Virus record (IMG/VR): IMGVR_UViG_3300016674_000123
Location: 1-51,376 of that record
Direction: 5' to 3' (one strand)
From: a virus
Lineage: Duplodnaviria > Caudoviricetes
Length of the DNA stretch: 51,376 nt
How positions within the stretch are numbered: the stretch's first letter is position 1; every line of letters begins with the position of its first letter. Under the pieces are notes generated by a model that made no database searches, was not told the origin of the DNA, and saw only the letters and a program-made list of their open reading frames with translations. The position numbers and the translations under genes are program-made. Positions 10,984 through 18,778 of the stretch are shown one piece after another.

Positions 10984-11011
10984 AAAAAAACCACCTCGTC
11001 AGAAGTGGTTT
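10984..11011 (-). terminator. intrinsic terminator after the DUF3127 gene
   Basis: AAACCAC/GTGGTTT stem followed by a T-run on the minus strand. Confidence 0.75.
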
Positions 11012-11284: not shown

Positions 11285-11512
11285 TTATTGTTTTGGTGGA
11301 GTTACAACAATATGCCCTTTAGCAACTAAATGAGCAACCGCAAGAACAATCTCTTTCCTTTTTCTTCTGGATAACTTGCTTTTTTCCTCCATGATTAAAT
11401 TGTACTCTTTAATCAAATATTCGTAACTTTTGATTAGATTTTTTGTTTTAGCTTCTTGTATTGCTTTTTTCGCAGCTCTTTTACGAAAGAACTCCTTGAT
11501 AAATTTTAGCAT
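11285..11512 (-). CDS. hypothetical basic protein
   Basis: 75-aa ORF, translationally coupled. Confidence 0.6.
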   Translation of the reverse strand: MLKFIKEFFRKRAAKKAIQEAKTKNLIKSYEYLIKEYNLIMEEKSKLSRRKRKEIVLAVAHLVAKGHIVVTPPKQ

Positions 11513-11697
11513 TAGTATATGGTTTTAATGTTTGATATTTCGTATTGATAATGTTGTGATACTGATTCCGCACAAATTACTTCATACATTACTTTGTGTC
11601 CATCCCAAATGATAGCAGTCACCATTCGTGGCAACTGCTCAATATCATGTTTCAGATAAACTATATCCTCAATATTATATTCATTTGGTATTTCCAT
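11512..11697 (-). CDS. hypothetical protein (SH3/KOW-like)
   Basis: YNIEDIVYLK...MVTAI pattern; coupled to the portal stop. Confidence 0.55.
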   Translation of the reverse strand: MEIPNEYNIEDIVYLKHDIEQLPRMVTAIIWDGHKVMYEVICAESVSQHYQYEISNIKTIY

Positions 11698-13112
11698 TAT
11701 TCAACTATTGGATTTTGTTCTGATGCTTTTTCAGAATTAATCAAAGTCAATTCTTCCTCTGGGTTCTCAACCATATCAATCAATTTAATAGCAGATTGAG
11801 CAGACAATAAACCTGCCTCTTTTAATGATATAATAATATCTGTTGCGGTTTTAACATCATCTGGAATGATTGAATTGAAAACAATATCATAATATAAAGC
11901 ACTTCCTAATCCTGATAAAGAAGTGTTTGTGGTTTTTATAATTCCCGACATGATCACATTAATAATTCTTTCAATCATAGTTCTATTTTCTCCCTCATTC
12001 ATCGTTGACTTTATAACTGCATCAAGAAAAAGTAATTTTAAAGCAACTCCCGAAACACTACCAAGACCTTTAACGTTGTCAAATGATAAATCCGGTGTAT
12101 GTGAAATTGAATAAATCAATTCTTTTAAATTATCAAATTCAAGTTTTGAACTTTCAGCAGAATTTGAAGACACCAAAAATTCAGCACCTCCCTTAATCCA
12201 ATTTCCTGAATCGTCTTTTTTCATTGGTAAATTAATAATCTTGCCGTTATCATCTTTATTTGGCAAAGTCTTAATATCACCATGTATCAATAAAATTGGA
12301 TAAGCTGTATAATCGTTTGAATTTCCTAATTTAGACAGAGTAGTTTCGTATCTATCAATTAATTCTTTTACTTCAAACCATTCTGGCTGTTCTTGAGATA
12401 CATAAACAATAGGAATTCTATCAAATCCATGGGCTTTAGGACCTTCGTAAACTAAATCGCCTGTTTGGTCGCTTAATTTATGATAATTAAGTTCATCCCA
12501 AATTTCAATAATATTGAATTCTTTTCCATTTTCACTTGCTTTATATTTCCACATAAATAGCTCCATATTTCCGTTTTGCCCGAAGTATGGAGTCATTTGT
12601 CCTTGTGTATTATCAAGAATTTTTGATTTAATCTCTTTAACCTGTTTATTTAACTTAAAAAAAGATAAAACTTTATTTAAAAGTGAATTTTCTGTTGAAT
12701 CCGCAATATAAAATTGAATTGCAGCTTGAGTTTCTGATTTTTTCAAAGAAACTATTTGTTGAATAGCTGCATCAATTCTGTTTATCTTCCAAATCTGATA
12801 AATCAATTTTGATAAATTGTTTTCTGCTGAAGGAATTAAAGTTACTGGCTTTCCTACTTCAAAAGCTGTTGCAGTAGTAACTATTTTTTTTGCAAAATTT
12901 ATCGGAATACGAACAGCTTTTACTATTTTACCTCCAGTTATTGGTTTATCAACTTGTGTATTTCCAACTTGACTCTCTCTAAGCTTTCTATCTTTGTCCT
13001 TGTATTCCTTTTGATATTTTGAGATATCTTCTACATTTTTAGACTGCGCTTCAATAGTTGCAATCACTTTTTTTGGGTCGGTTTTTAAACCGTCTAATAA
13101 ATTTGTTTCCAT
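11697..13112 (-). CDS. portal protein (SPP1-type)
   Basis: 471 aa; NFAKKIV, HGFDRIPIV, LIDRYE, TPDLS and SGVALK motifs; follows terL. Confidence 0.92.
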   Translation of the reverse strand: METNLLDGLKTDPKKVIATIEAQSKNVEDISKYQKEYKDKDRKLRESQVGNTQVDKPITGGKIVKAVRIPINFAKKIVTTATAFEVGKPVTLIPSAENNLSKLIYQIWKINRIDAAIQQIVSLKKSETQAAIQFYIADSTENSLLNKVLSFFKLNKQVKEIKSKILDNTQGQMTPYFGQNGNMELFMWKYKASENGKEFNIIEIWDELNYHKLSDQTGDLVYEGPKAHGFDRIPIVYVSQEQPEWFEVKELIDRYETTLSKLGNSNDYTAYPILLIHGDIKTLPNKDDNGKIINLPMKKDDSGNWIKGGAEFLVSSNSAESSKLEFDNLKELIYSISHTPDLSFDNVKGLGSVSGVALKLLFLDAVIKSTMNEGENRTMIERIINVIMSGIIKTTNTSLSGLGSALYYDIVFNSIIPDDVKTATDIIISLKEAGLLSAQSAIKLIDMVENPEEELTLINSEKASEQNPIVE

Positions 13113-13117
13113 GGTTA

Positions 13118-14587
13118 TTAATAATTAATGTTTTTTAAAGTTTCTGTGTCAGTTTCAAGTATTGCCGATTCTGAATTATGCGCAATGTGGCCATAACGAG
13201 CCATATCCCAAATGTGGTTAAACTTATCGATAGGCTGATTAATAGCGATTCCACCGATTTCTTTCATTCGGTAGTTTTGTTGTTCCTTTAGTGCTTCTCG
13301 GTAAAGATGATTTTTAACAATATGAATTTTTTTAGTTTTCATAGAGTTAAGCCAAAACATAACCGATTTAGTTTTACTGATTTTATAAGCATTTATAAAA
13401 CCTCTTTGTTTCAATCCTCGAACCATTTCAACTGTTCCTTTGTTTTCTCCAGTGTATTTATCCGCAGAATCACAAGGGATAATGTCTTTAGCTGGGTCAA
13501 TTCCGAGCTCTTCCATTAAAGAAGCTAAAGCATCAGGAGTTTCTATTGGTTCATAACATAACGGCTCAATCCAAATGTTGTACTCATCCTCTGCATATTT
13601 TCCAAGCACATTTGGATCTGTTGTAAATCCAAAGTCATTTGGATAAATTGGCGCTTTATCTTCTGGGAATTTATCAATCCATTCAACGTATGGGAAAATA
13701 ACTCCTTTCATTGCGCCACGTAAACCAAGTCCGTAAACTTTCCAATTGAACTCGTCAGCAGTTCCGTTTTGAATGTTTGTTGGGTGCGGTGGTGGTTGGT
13801 TTGTTGATGTTACAGGCTCAATCTTTTTAGTGAGCTTATTGTAACACATTATCACAGAATTTTTAACAATGTATGATCCTGGCTTCCATGGTTCCCAACC
13901 AAGTATTTTGTTTTTCTCCCCAGCAGAAATATGTTTATTATCAAGATAGGTGGTTCGAAGAAAAACAACATCAGGACGAGTAAGTACTTTATCAAAAAAC
14001 CAATGGTCTGTAACTGAAGGGTTGTAATCCGCCCACCAAAACTTACGACAACGCAATTCTACTTGGTCAAATACGGATTGCTTAATAAACATTATCTCAT
14101 TAAAAAAGGCATAGTCACAACCTCCACCATGCTTACCGTCTCCAAGAAAGAATATTTTGCTTTTTCCAATCTTAAAAGACTTTACCTCGTCGTTATTATG
14201 AAATTTATTTGGCAGTCCGTAATCGTCAAGCCTGCGCTTGAAATCATCGTAAAGAGTAGTTTTAAATTCGTTGTAGGTTTCACGATAAATGTTGATTGTA
14301 CATCCTTTTGGCTCGTAGTAAAGACAAAGCCAAATAATAATATCTACACCTGACCATGTTTTTCCAGAACGCGACGAACCTTCAAGTCCAGCGCCACGAA
14401 ACCCAGAAACAAGCACATCATCGCCTTTTTCATCTTTCTCGTACTTCTGTTGAGTGATTGACTCAAATAGGAGTTTATAATTAGGGTTGGTATCTTCGTC
14501 TATTTTGGTTAGCTTTTTGCGTGAAATGTCAATCCCTTTTTCTTTCAAGAGAGTTTCAAGTTCCAACATTTCAGCATCTGTAAGCAT
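13118..14587 (-). CDS. terL: terminase large subunit (PBSX/SPP1-like)
   Basis: Walker A GSSRSGKT, Walker B AFFNE, DYNP, nuclease DFGFTTDP and NHIWDMARY. Confidence 0.93.
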   Translation of the reverse strand: MLTDAEMLELETLLKEKGIDISRKKLTKIDEDTNPNYKLLFESITQQKYEKDEKGDDVLVSGFRGAGLEGSSRSGKTWSGVDIIIWLCLYYEPKGCTINIYRETYNEFKTTLYDDFKRRLDDYGLPNKFHNNDEVKSFKIGKSKIFFLGDGKHGGGCDYAFFNEIMFIKQSVFDQVELRCRKFWWADYNPSVTDHWFFDKVLTRPDVVFLRTTYLDNKHISAGEKNKILGWEPWKPGSYIVKNSVIMCYNKLTKKIEPVTSTNQPPPHPTNIQNGTADEFNWKVYGLGLRGAMKGVIFPYVEWIDKFPEDKAPIYPNDFGFTTDPNVLGKYAEDEYNIWIEPLCYEPIETPDALASLMEELGIDPAKDIIPCDSADKYTGENKGTVEMVRGLKQRGFINAYKISKTKSVMFWLNSMKTKKIHIVKNHLYREALKEQQNYRMKEIGGIAINQPIDKFNHIWDMARYGHIAHNSESAILETDTETLKNINY

Positions 14588-14589
14588 TT

Positions 14590-14850
14590 TTAACTTTTAT
14601 AGTTTATTTTCCAAAAACCAACTTGTTTATAATCATCTGAAATACCACCATTAACGCCGTCAATAATTTTAAAAGGCTTAGTACTTAATAATGTTTGGTC
14701 AACCACGAGAAAAACAGTATTAGTATCATTTCCAACTTCAATAAATAAAGGCTTTACTGGCTTCATAGAATCGGTACATTCTTCTAAACGAACAGCCCAC
14801 GCATGTTCTACGTTTTGGACCTCTATGTATGTTTGTGGTATAATTTTCAT
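14590..14850 (-). CDS. hypothetical protein
   Basis: 86-aa ORF in operon. Confidence 0.6.
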   Translation of the reverse strand: MKIIPQTYIEVQNVEHAWAVRLEECTDSMKPVKPLFIEVGNDTNTVFLVVDQTLLSTKPFKIIDGVNGGISDDYKQVGFWKINYKS

Positions 14851-14858
14851 AACATTTT

Positions 14859-15206
14859 CTAAATGAATAAATGTTCCTTTTTTGAAACGATGTTAGCGTC
14901 TTTCAATAACACCGTAAAGTTGTATGCAGAAGCTCTTGATATGTGCAATTTTTCGGCACGCTCAATAAGTTCCTCTGAACTGAAAATAAACATCGAGCAA
15001 ACTATATCAATTAAATGTCTTCGCTCTAATGTGTTTCTTAATCGTTTTGCTTTGATATAAGCGTTTATTTTATCTCTGCGGTCTGAATGGCTAGCAACCA
15101 TATTTTCTTTTGAATCTAACGAATCCAAAACAGCCAAACCAATAAGTGTTGGGTCGGTTGTCTTTTTTCCTTGAACGTAAACTTTATTATTTCTGATTAT
15201 TATCAT
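14859..15206 (-). CDS. Fur-family winged-helix DNA-binding domain with a novel N-terminus and no metal-binding/dimerisation domain
   Basis: YIKAKRLRNTLERRHLIDIV...F...L...ISRASAYNFTVLLKDANIVSK follows the Fur N-domain pattern R-x-T-x-ER ... SRAT-x-YN-x3-LL ... V-x-K. Confidence 0.7.
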   Translation of the reverse strand: MIIIRNNKVYVQGKKTTDPTLIGLAVLDSLDSKENMVASHSDRRDKINAYIKAKRLRNTLERRHLIDIVCSMFIFSSEELIERAEKLHISRASAYNFTVLLKDANIVSKKEHLFI

Positions 15207-15423
15207 TTTCGATGATTTCTTTAATTAGTTTAAATTCAGTAATTGAAGTCATATACTGCTGAACATAATCAAGACCAAGTCTTTTTGCTTGCTCGTAATC
15301 GTGGTAAATGTTTTTGTAGTTCTTGGTTAGCAGTTTTTGTTTGAACTTATCAGTTCCTTCAAGAGATTTGAAATACTCGGTATTTTCAATAACCGCGACG
15401 AAGTTTGTAATATTTACTATCAT
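15187..15423 (-). CDS. hypothetical protein
   Basis: 78-aa ORF directly downstream of the ncRNA cluster. Confidence 0.6.
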   Translation of the reverse strand: MIVNITNFVAVIENTEYFKSLEGTDKFKQKLLTKNYKNIYHDYEQAKRLGLDYVQQYMTSITEFKLIKEIIENDNNQK

Positions 15424-15445
15424 AATGTTTTTTATTATGAAACAC

Positions 15446-15685
15446 GAAAAGCAATTTTGACAATCTGTTTTTTATAAGCAACGAAAGGCTAACGTTATAC
15501 GACCAGATTTTGCGTTGTTCTAATTTCTCGGTTCTTAACAAGGGAAGATTAAAAACCAATACATTACCCTATAACCTCAACGCAGCAGAATGATTTGACG
15601 AGCTATAAACAACCCGATAGGTTCTACTTGCTCATTTGTGCCTAACGCATGGGTATCGCTAAGGGGATGAGCTAAATTGCTTTTC
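15446..15685 (-). ncRNA. candidate ~240-nt multibranch structured RNA
   Basis: Perfect 12-bp terminal stem GAAAAGCAATTT/AAATTGCTTTTC enclosing several nested stems; no ORF. Confidence 0.6.
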
Positions 15686-15712
15686 AATATTTCAATTAAC
15701 AACTAAATTTTG

Positions 15713-15783
15713 TAGCGGATGCCAGACTCGAACTGGTCTTATGGATTATGAGTCCATCGTGCTAGCCATTACACTACACCGCG
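15713..15783 (-). tRNA. tRNA-Met(CAT), atypical
   Basis: D arm GTGT/GCAC, anticodon arm ATGGA-CTCATAA-TCCAT, T arm CCAG-TTCGAGT-CTGG; acceptor stem irregular with C1:U72 mismatch. Confidence 0.8.
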
Positions 15784-15914
15784 ATGTTGAAAGTCTTTCC
15801 TTTCTGTCAACTCTAGTTATCATCAACCTAACCTTAGCGTAACAATTCCGAGTAAGAACGAGTGGTCTTTCTTTTAAAATCCGTAGCCACTATTGAGGAT
15901 TCCTTCTTTAAAAT

Positions 15915-16000
15915 TGTGGAGGATAACGGATTCGAACCGCTTACTCTGTTGATACAATGTGCACTTACCAACTCTGCTCTATCCGATGAGCTACTTCCAC
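15915..16000 (-). ncRNA. tRNA-like RNA with enlarged anticodon arm
   Basis: Acceptor GTGGA/TCCAC, D arm GCTC/GAGC, T arm AGCGG-TTCGAAT-CCGTT; anticodon arm GTTGGTA/TATCAAC with an 11-nt loop. Confidence 0.7.
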
Positions 16001-16086
16001 TTGATCATTCTTTCGCTTTTAACCCAAAGGAAACAGTTTCACAGTTAACGAAGGGAGCTTCCCATATTGTCTGAAGCTAATGGCCT

Positions 16087-16323
16087 TTATTTTTTGATAC
16101 CTCGTCTTAAACGATTTACCTTGTTTTTAATCTTTTGACTTTTACTCGGGAAATAAATCGGTGAGTAGGATGGACCGAAATATGTCGGAGCACTAGGTCT
16201 ACCATCAAATTTGTGAGATTGTTCCGTTTCATTTTTTAATTGATTCATACTCTTTGAAGCCTGTTCCGCTTGTGAAGCCAAACCAAACATTGCAGCAGCT
16301 AACCCGATAATTGATTTTCTCAT
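16087..16323 (-). CDS. hypothetical protein (hydrophobic N-terminus, basic C-terminus)
   Basis: 78-aa ORF downstream of a promoter. Confidence 0.6.
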   Translation of the reverse strand: MRKSIIGLAAAMFGLASQAEQASKSMNQLKNETEQSHKFDGRPSAPTYFGPSYSPIYFPSKSQKIKNKVNRLRRGIKK

Positions 16324-16346
16324 AATTTATTGTTTTTTCGTTGCAT

Positions 16347-16388
16347 CAAAAATAATACATTTTGCAACATAATTGCAAAATATGTTAT
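16347..16388 (-). promoter_or_regulatory. promoter with inverted ATAACATATTTTGCAA-type operator pair
   Basis: TATTTTTG -7 box 16347-16354; motif copies at 16352-16367 (14/16) and 16373-16388 (perfect, inverted). Confidence 0.65.
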
Positions 16389-16406
16389 TATTTATTTAAA
16401 AAAAAT

Positions 16407-16886
16407 CTAAACATTGAGTTTAGAAGCTTTTTCGAGTAATGCCTCAAGTCTTTTTTGCTTTTCTTCGCTAAACTCAAAAGAATCAGGAATTAAAGGGTTT
16501 TCTTTATCACCACGCAATACGGTTACTTTTGGAATATAAAGACCTTCAAGCTTTGTGATTTCCTTTTTAATTGAATTGATAACGGACATTCCTTGCGGTG
16601 TACCTTTATAGCTTTCTTTCATGTTACGAATATCCTGTTTTAATTCAGCTATTCGCATGATACGCTTTTGCTCAATGGTTGCTTCTTCGTCTTGTTGCCA
16701 TGCAACGTAGGCTTTTTTAAGAAGTTCCTTTGCTTGGCGACGGCTTATATTGTTTCCGTCTTTGTTTTGGAATTGGTTGCAAATGTTTTTAAGTATCAAA
16801 TAATCGGGCACACCATTAATAATCCACCCTTGAATGGTGAATACACGTCTTTCTGTTTCTTCTTTGGAAGATCTAACGCCAGCCAT
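16407..16886 (-). CDS. putative terminase small subunit
   Basis: 159 aa; N-terminal HTH-like segment (ISRRQAKELLKKA), helical core, KLEGLY and GDKENPL tail; upstream of terL. Confidence 0.55.
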   Translation of the reverse strand: MAGVRSSKEETERRVFTIQGWIINGVPDYLILKNICNQFQNKDGNNISRRQAKELLKKAYVAWQQDEEATIEQKRIMRIAELKQDIRNMKESYKGTPQGMSVINSIKKEITKLEGLYIPKVTVLRGDKENPLIPDSFEFSEEKQKRLEALLEKASKLNV

Positions 16887-18750: not shown

Positions 18751-18778
18751 AAAAAAAGCCACCCTATGTGGATGGCTT
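18751..18778 (-). terminator. intrinsic terminator
   Basis: AAGCCA/TGGCTT stem followed by a T-run on the minus strand. Confidence 0.7.

Follow-up and report, generated by a model that had tools for sequence, protein, structure and literature searches.

The stretch of DNA considered here (hereafter the window) is a single viral record of 51,376 bases (IMG/VR record IMGVR_UViG_3300016674_000123, completeness estimate 97%) in which nearly all genes lie on the minus strand. Matches to PHROG and Pfam families identify an integrase, a CI-like repressor, helicases, a clamp, RecT-like and SbcC-like proteins, NinB, a resolvase and a ParB-methyltransferase, after which come a large terminase, an SPP1-type portal, structural genes and lysis genes, a layout that is temperate and lambdoid in style. 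Two small minus-strand open reading frames (ORFs), with no Pfam or PHROG match at E≤1, leave between them a gap of 663 nucleotides (nt), located roughly 850 nt upstream of the terminase. This gap contains an RNA element that directly follows a transfer RNA (tRNA) gene and belongs to a conserved, pseudoknotted family of 174-257 nt that is new to Rfam. An original prediction, made from the letters of 15446-15685 on the minus strand, had described this element as an unclassified multibranch RNA; the evidence presented below leaves very little doubt that it represents a real, conserved RNA family.

The predicted stem that closes the element is present with every pair intact, and because a further 8 pairs follow beyond a bulged U, the element in the window is taken to be 257 nt long. 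By itself, a perfect inverted repeat of 12 base pairs (bp) is within chance, as 6 such 12-mer pairs at distances of ≤300 nt occur in the window against 4.4 ± 2.5 in 30 shuffles, so the stem was rejected as stand-alone evidence. The minimum free energy (MFE) of the whole fold is more telling: 15446-15685 on the minus strand reaches -63.7 kcal/mol, compared with -48.2 ± 4.3 for 200 dinucleotide shuffles (z = -3.60, 0/200 as good), a comparison that the original prediction had made part of its refuting condition and that comes out in its favour. For the plus strand of the same segment z is -0.56, and 55 of 200 shuffles fold equally well. A protein-coding explanation was also considered and rejected. 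ATG-started ORFs on this strand are below 10 codons, as predicted and as a reading of the sequence bears out; TTG-started frames of 57 and 41 amino acids overlap the element, and conserved coding is ruled out because homologues gain and lose whole helices by insertion and deletion.

The large terminase served as the anchor of a search for homologues, which found 84 terminase relatives in viral contigs, 80 of which provided syntenic loci that were used as the source (individual loci are cited by L numbers). Searches with blastn and nhmmer turned up close homologues of the element in L002, L003, L006 and L009; those in L011 and L033 are more distant. The initial covariance model (R1) then had full-length matches in many further loci, all but one of which are upstream of the terminase gene and on its strand. 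The exception is a second copy of the RNA in L056 (8521-8757, minus), which is inverted and divergent, lies opposite to the terminase strand and is cut by the end of the contig; it is similar to the copy with which L033, from the same metagenome, begins, and may be an assembly chimera or a true second locus.

A second covariance model (R2) was built from 17 short-type distant homologues, with a structure drawn by hand from their alignment and with the window and its close relatives excluded. In the 51,376 bases of the window R2 has one match, 15447-15684 on the minus strand (92.2 bits, E ~2e-18, full model length), so this genome carries a single copy of the RNA. Across 81 sources, R2 returned 40 matches, namely 38 of the 80 terminase-syntenic loci, the window and the second L056 copy; the upstream sequence is <2300 nt in 14 of the 42 loci with no match and longer in the other 28. 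Pattern scans of other viral contigs contributed 17 R2 matches among 72 sources, and a strict metagenome pattern found 6 contigs, 6/6 of which are members, a count that is no census because the pattern is narrow. The search of phage loci by covariance model that the original prediction had recommended was thus productive, and it shows that model matches range from 174 to 250 nt, with a short form of ~190 nt. The carriers are temperate siphovirus-like phages of fresh water and waste water, and their hosts are probably Bacteroidota/Flavobacteriia, judging from terminase similarity. When the window region and a short-type member were compared by blastn with 50,697 phage records there was no match. 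In the nearest cultured phage, Cellulophaga phage Nekkels_1, whose terminase is 61% identical, R1 found no match over the whole genome (best E 0.38) and R2 none at the locus; R1 also matched 0/80 of the loci examined among at least 119 that a pattern scan found in genome contigs.

Covariation across homologues is the decisive evidence that this element acts as an RNA. When 47 distinct sequences were aligned to R2, the 42 modelled pairs were canonical in 95.8% of 1935 cells, compared with 68.6% when partners were shuffled and 34-45% when partners were slid by 1-3 columns. Both-side changes are present in 37/42 pairs, and the covariation score is 0.729 against 0.210 for shuffled partners, with 0/500 shuffles reaching any of five measures. 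A chance fold is excluded because of these compensatory changes. In addition, among 2115 cells there are 172 G-U or U-G combinations against 14 A-C or C-A combinations, an excess which indicates that the structure is a property of the minus-strand transcript, and neither of duplex DNA nor of the opposite strand.

A mutual-information scan of all column pairs revealed one strong signal outside the model, a 4-bp pseudoknot that is paired in 85.0% of cells against 60.3% in shuffles and in which 57 cells are changed on both sides against 20.1. Three of its pairs covary (CG 35/UA 10; AU 22/UA 15/CG 5/GC 2; UA 32/CG 11), and the remaining pair, the third, is canonical in only 21/45 sequences. The alignment was not fitted to this pseudoknot, because R2 omits that helix.

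Taken together, the alignment and its covariation show a five-way junction of helices P1-P5 that is locked where the P3 internal loop pairs with the P4 loop in the pseudoknot (Table 1). All 12 P1 pairs in the model (helices 1-2) show both-side changes across the family; P1 is lengthened to ~20-27 bp in relatives, ranges from 12 to ~27 bp overall, and has an A-run/U-run foot in 32/47 copies. P2 is a short hairpin with an AUAAG loop in most members, and all 4 of its modelled pairs (helix 3) covary. In P3 and P3a (helices 4 and 5) pairing reaches 92.9% and 97.0%, and covariation is seen in 5 and 3 pairs. P4 (helix 6) is 99.6% paired, with covariation in all 5 model pairs; the P4a hairpin is missing from short-type members. 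P5 (helix 7) is 100% paired, 5/6 of its pairs covary, and it encloses a large internal loop (GUCGUnUnnCGUU opposite UAUAAAAAA) in which almost no position varies, capped by a variable P5a hairpin. The P5 domain is the most conserved part of the family, and its loop letters are ≥90% conserved even in a divergent second lineage; the loop is also kept where P3 and P4 have diverged. About 1/3 of all positions are nearly invariant, among them ~60 loop nucleotides; they cluster in the internal loop of P5 (UCGUnUnnCGUUA opposite UUAUAAAAAA), in the loop strand UUAAAUCA of P3 and in AUAAG, the loop of P2.

Most of the secondary structure in the original prediction is recovered in this fold. The perfect closing stem, GCTCAT/ATGAGC with its inner hairpin, TGCGTTG/CAACGCA (as GCGUUG/CAACGC) with the 11-bp hairpin that it encloses, and AATCTG/CAGATT all form without a mismatch in the window. 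TATAA/TTATA, placed inside the last of these stems, does form in the MFE fold of the window, but the pairing conserved at this position is the 3-bp AGC/GCU. The proposed long-range contacts fared worse. GTTATA/TATAAC is paired in 67.0% of cells against 68.8% in shuffles, lacks covariation (480/500 shuffles reach its score) and overlaps a strand of the pseudoknot; TACCC/GGGTA and AGGG/CCCT fall in insertions that are found in the window group only and, by eye in alignment A1, are not kept even there.

Table 1. Coordinates of the RNA element, its predicted helices and the neighbouring genes in the window
Feature	Positions	Strand	Sequence	Pairing or evidence
Whole RNA element, 257 nt with extended closing helix	15438-15694	minus		Base-by-base helix check; R2; MFE
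P1, 5' strand	15674-15685	minus	GAAAAGCAAUUU	12/12 pairs with 15446-15457
P1, 3' strand	15446-15457	minus	AAAUUGCUUUUC	12/12 pairs with 15674-15685
P1 extension, 5' strand	15687-15694	minus		8/8 pairs with 15438-15445; U15686 bulged
P1 extension, 3' strand	15438-15445	minus		Ends 14 nt ahead of the ATG of ORF 15187-15423
P2	15630-15672	minus	GCUCAU 15672-15667 with AUGAGC 15635-15630	6/6 pairs
P2a, inner hairpin	15663-15657 with 15647-15641	minus		7/7 pairs; window-group enlargement of P2
P3 (domain)	15584-15628	minus	AGUAGAA 15628-15622 with UUCUGCU 15590-15584	7/7 pairs
P3a	15616-15612 with 15603-15599	minus	CGGGU with GCUCG	5/5 pairs
P3, conserved internal-loop strand	15598-15591	minus	UCAAAUCA	Family consensus cUCgUnAaAucAuu
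Pseudoknot, 5' strand (in P3 internal loop)	15617-15620	minus	CUAU	Pairs with 15569-15572
Pseudoknot, 3' strand (in P4 apical loop)	15569-15572	minus	AUAG	4/4 pairs in window
P4 (domain)	15512-15583	minus	GCGUUG 15583-15578 with CAACGC 15517-15512	6/6 pairs
P4a, 11-bp hairpin in P4 loop	15559-15549 with 15538-15528	minus	UUGGUUUUUAA/UUAAGAACCGA	11/11 pairs; window-group insertion
P5 (domain)	15462-15509	minus	AAUCUG 15509-15504 with CAGAUU 15467-15462	6/6 pairs
P5, internal loop	15503-15491 opposite 15476-15468	minus	GUCGUAUAACGUU opposite UAUAAAAAA	Letters ≥90% conserved
P5a	15490-15488 with 15479-15477	minus	AGC/GCU	All 3 pairs covary (helix 8)
tRNA gene, anticodon CAU	15714-15782	minus		Rfam tRNA 47.1 bits; 19 nt upstream of extended P1
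Weak tRNA-like gene, enlarged anticodon arm	15917-16000	minus		Rfam tRNA 17.7 bits, under gathering score
First ORF downstream of RNA, 78 amino acids	15187-15423	minus		No family; not a constant neighbour across the RNA family
Small ORF bounding gap upstream	16087-16323	minus		ORF list
Large terminase, synteny anchor	13118-14587	minus		PHROG and Pfam matches
SPP1-type portal, follows terminase	11697-13112	minus		PHROG and Pfam matches

The novelty of the family, which the original prediction had made conditional on a comparison with Rfam, was assessed against Rfam 15, whose families include tRNA, tmRNA, RNase P, 6S, group I/II introns, pRNA, GOLLD, ROOL, riboswitches and self-cleaving ribozymes. 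At gathering score the only match in the whole window is the tRNA gene directly upstream of the RNA, and at E≤10 nothing on the RNA strand within the element was returned from a scan of 15000-16400, the sole overlap being plus-strand hsp17 (18.3 bits, E 3.5). No match at E≤10 overlaps the RNA in 6 diverse members, and at gathering score 13 related loci contain only tRNAs and the DUF805b motif, both away from the RNA. The element therefore stands as an unclassified structured RNA; the window copy has the R2 match, intact helices, a complete pseudoknot and a tRNA directly upstream. A full-text search of the literature found no description of this RNA. A survey of IMG/VR reports 8,495 candidates for viral RNAs, 29-151 nt in length (Fremin et al., 2023; PMC10690425), and its list may include a fragment of the present RNA. 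A retron msr-msd was considered and rejected, since flanking repeats are present but there is no reverse transcriptase among 39 PHROG-scanned ORFs, all beyond position 11512.

What the RNA constantly has beside it, and what the original prediction did not mention, is a same-strand tRNA gene that directly precedes it. ARAGORN calls a tRNA that ends ≤35 nt upstream in 16/47 copies, with eight identities (Ala, Leu, Phe, Tyr, Met, Asn, Trp and Pro), and a T-loop motif ends ≤50 nt upstream in 30/47; the other 17/47 have no tRNA signal by these T-loop and ARAGORN tests. The tRNA in front of the RNA can be of any identity, at a distance of 0-27 nt. Over 600 nt on the downstream side of the RNA, ARAGORN finds a tRNA in 0/47 copies and a T-loop motif is present in 4/47, so the RNA appears as the last member of a tRNA array. 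When the window is compared with L002, homology is lost over the tRNA cassette and returns at 15713, the first base past the tRNA, and the loose ends of relatives' contigs at 15712-15713 read as other tRNAs.

Within the window ARAGORN called zero tRNAs, and the gene at 15714-15782, on which it makes no call, has a predicted fold with a bulged U in the acceptor stem. Elsewhere, Rfam adds oversized tRNA-like genes of 104-123 nt, which abut the RNA within 0-7 nt in L049, L043, L027 and L030. These genes (L049 4039-4152; L043 1023-1126; L052 3122-3244; L027 3651-3773 and 4115-4233; L030 1723-1837; L008 3617-3732) score 35-49 bits as Rfam tRNA and are missed by ARAGORN, and their counterpart in the window is the weak, 84-nt tRNA-like gene listed in Table 1. 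Their folds have normal acceptor, D and T arms, with a structured insertion of 40-50 nt that replaces or extends the anticodon arm, and they could be intron-bearing tRNAs or tRNA mimics. A 201-nt segment of L137 (4290-4490, minus) has 26.9 bits as Rfam tRNA, just under gathering score, and may be a tRNA with a large insertion of ~130 nt.

The genes on the other side of the RNA are not constant. They include the 78-amino-acid ORF of the window, a conserved 'MIEIxNGRVF'-type ORF and p115-like, HNH-like and lipoprotein-like ORFs. The distance from the RNA to the terminase gene downstream of it is 210-1840 nt (median 642) in the terminase lineage. The second lineage consists of L130, L137, L146 and L164; there the RNA also follows a tRNA, and tblastn found no terminase or p115-like gene in these four loci; in L130 and L137 it follows tRNA-Asn and is followed in turn by RusA-like, RNase H and GroES genes. 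The existence of two unrelated contexts, only one of which is beside a terminase, suggests that the RNA is tied to tRNAs and not to packaging genes. In L008, a close terminase relative that lacks the RNA, three tRNA genes lead straight into the conserved ORF, indicating that the RNA is a separable cassette.

These properties are best accommodated, with a probability that we put at roughly 0.55, by an independent, trans-acting RNA that is matured together with tRNAs. In such a scheme, the RNA would be transcribed together with the upstream tRNAs, as suggested by the 0-27 nt spacing and the shared strand. Its 5' end would be freed by cutting at the 3' end of the upstream tRNA, and the tRNA genes, which by eye lack an encoded CCA, point to an RNase Z-type cleavage. 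The long P1 helix and its A-run/U-run foot would seal both ends of the product, and might also serve as a terminator or as an RNase III stalk. The compact core could then act in trans, with the invariant P5 loop as the proposed binding site for a protein or RNA partner. Paired 5' and 3' ends, with the A-run/U-run foot in 32/47 copies, fit a discrete stable RNA.

Several observations weigh against this proposal. Material from RNA libraries (runs X10, X14, X19 and X20) consists of assembled contigs that cannot show ends, strand or level, and two of these runs, although labelled RNA-Seq, are probably DNA; contigs of relatives pile up on the conserved core in the four runs, where depth per contig cannot rank regions, and although a lake metatranscriptome includes one 227-nt contig with a homologue of the core, this does not prove transcription. 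The RNA is directly upstream of same-strand ORFs in every case, as a cis-acting leader would be. Its dense invariant nucleotides and pseudoknot would be as much at home in an aptamer or a ribozyme as in a protein-binding RNA, no partner gene that co-varies with it was identified, and processing by RNase Z or RNase III is itself inferred. The RNA is also missing from 28 terminase-related loci with ≥2300 nt of upstream sequence and from the nearest cultured phage, so it must be dispensable. Finally, searches of host genomes found no match (R2 in 0/3 and 0/151 Flavobacteriaceae genomes, the terminase protein in 0/401), a result that says nothing on absence because these searches had no positive control.

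The proximity of the RNA to coding sequence raises the possibility, to our minds an unlikely one yet the strongest of the competitors, that it is a cis-acting leader of the downstream operon, such as a riboswitch-like sensor, a put-like antitermination RNA or an element of translation control. In every case the element precedes ORFs and shares their strand, at 14 nt from the ATG in the window, and in the terminase lineage it opens a long structural operon that runs in one direction within a temperate, lambdoid-style genome; a pseudoknot combined with many invariant nucleotides in loops is typical of an aptamer, and in 32/47 copies the foot of P1 is a stem with a U-run after it. Against a leader, the first downstream gene is not constant among members, and the constant neighbour is the upstream tRNA. 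No alternative pairing was seen, nor any separate platform for expression control, an unpaired, A-rich run precedes the start codon in the window, a terminator scan of 15000-16500 found no canonical terminator, and related phages have the same operon without the element.

Two groups of known RNAs bear on such a leader. The leaders of lambdoid phages include the HK022 put RNA, the lambda PR' 6S leader and the tRNA genes in the late leader of Shiga toxin (Stx) phages. The present RNA shares their position after a nin-like/resolvase/methylase region and before late genes, along with the company of tRNA genes, but no similarity to them was detected and it is also found away from the start of a late operon. 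The put RNA consists of two short hairpins (~70 nt), and the 6S leader is not known to have an ornate conserved fold. Orphan motifs of the raiA type resemble the present RNA in having invariant junction and internal-loop nucleotides, a pseudoknot and a frequent location upstream of ORFs; the present RNA differs in having no expression platform or consistent class of downstream gene, and in being confined to phages and linked to tRNAs.

It is improbable, though less so than the explanations that follow, that the family represents a new functional class. It might be a ribozyme, or a switch that senses a ligand or tRNA, and so link the state of the tRNA array to the genes that follow, which in the window are packaging and late genes; or it might be a compact RNA-only assembly unit like those of ROOL and GOLLD. 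In that event, the invariant P5 loop would be the active or binding site.

There is a slim chance that the RNA is passive punctuation, in which the stalk or core merely ends or insulates the tRNA unit as a terminator, an RNase III site or a block to exonucleases. The constant last position in the tRNA array, a P1 of 12 to ~27 bp with its A-run/U-run foot and the dispensability of the element in relatives would all suit this role. A stalk has no need, however, of a five-way junction, a covarying pseudoknot and ~60 invariant loop nucleotides that were kept though helices changed completely, and it is the P5 internal loop, not P1, that is most conserved.

Complex pseudoknotted folds with many invariant nucleotides are rare, and they have repeatedly proved to be ribozymes, riboswitches or core parts of ribonucleoproteins. 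The many invariant unpaired nucleotides of the present fold, and the tRNA and unusual tRNA-like genes that directly adjoin it, could be taken to suggest a catalytic RNA that cleaves itself or acts on neighbouring tRNA precursors. We regard this as very improbable, given that no Rfam ribozyme matches the window or 6 diverse members at E≤10 and that an oversized tRNA-like gene is also present in the RNA-free relative L008.

Least credible of all is a packaging-associated RNA like the packaging RNA (pRNA) of phi29, a DNA site (pac, cos or an origin), a chance fold or a miniature inverted-repeat transposable element (MITE): the nearby terminase and portal genes in the window and the perfect 12-bp inverted repeat that bounds the element invite these explanations, but the second lineage carries the RNA away from packaging genes, no Rfam family matches, pRNA included, a double-stranded DNA site is rejected by the strand-specific G-U excess, a chance fold by compensatory changes in 37/42 pairs, and a MITE by the single copy per genome and the covarying internal helices. 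Among the roles that the original prediction had suggested (protein decoy, ribozyme or packaging-associated RNA), packaging is the one that loses ground. The likeness to phi29 pRNA extends to a phage-encoded RNA of similar size with paired 5' and 3' ends. The differences are that the window phage has a classical, nuclease-bearing large terminase with an SPP1-type portal, and that the second lineage, in which the link to packaging is broken (L130 and L137), has the RNA by recombination and replication genes. Phages that use pRNA have a different ATPase and protein-primed DNA.

If the family is indeed an independent RNA matured with tRNAs, its closest parallels are other phage RNAs that travel with tRNA genes, among which it is a new, unrelated fold. 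GOLLD and ROOL are described as 'often near tRNA islands' and of unknown function, with co-transcription with tRNAs suggested, and many GOLLD members are given as >800 nt. Like them, the present RNA is encoded by phages or prophages, has an elaborate, covarying, pseudoknotted fold and is typically beside tRNA genes; unlike them, it is only 174-250 nt in model matches (257 nt in the window), and it matches neither of their Rfam models. ROOL is ~580 nt long. GOLLD may hold tRNAs inside it, whereas the present RNA stands strictly after the last tRNA. Both GOLLD and ROOL form RNA-only multimers; the shared trait that was checked for the present RNA is the genomic habit of residing in phages near tRNAs.

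RNAC and RNAD of phage T4, described as 'RNAs of yet unknown functions', offer a second comparison, drawn from their descriptions. They too are small, stable phage RNAs, and the processing route ascribed to them is the one proposed here, with the difference that T4 is a virulent myovirus of E. coli. RNAC and RNAD are encoded within the T4 tRNA cluster, are matured from the same precursors as the tRNAs and have a much simpler fold. The question that the present family shares with GOLLD, ROOL, RNAC and RNAD is why phages keep ornate RNAs by their tRNAs, and its short form of ~190 nt makes it a small, tractable case among them, easier to probe, mutate, pull down or solve than RNAs of 600-800 nt because of its size.

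The family also marks a hypervariable cargo slot, filled with tRNAs, odd tRNA-like genes and the RNA, before the packaging genes of freshwater temperate phages. Comparison of 13118-16400 in the window with L002, L004, L008, L014 and L073 locates this slot between the methyltransferase region and the terminase gene, and close terminase relatives (80-91% identical) vary in their tRNA sets, small ORFs and presence of the RNA.

Scans of the window for promoters and terminators gave the same counts as in shuffles. The best two intrinsic-terminator-like hairpins on the gene strand, with 9-10 bp stems followed by T-runs, lie before the ParB-methyltransferase gene and within the structural operon (18756-18778 and 10988-11011, minus). 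Just upstream of the small ORF that bounds the gap (16336-16395) there is a 23-nt imperfect palindrome (16345-16367 with 16373-16395) together with a TAnnTTTG-like box; by eye, these could be an operator and a Bacteroidota-type promoter (-7 box near 16340-16347) for the tRNA and RNA unit. In two related loci, the structural-gene region contains the DUF805b motif (RF02914) mentioned above, at 8929-8960 in L035 and 8249-8280 in L052, with a score of 40 bits that is above gathering score.

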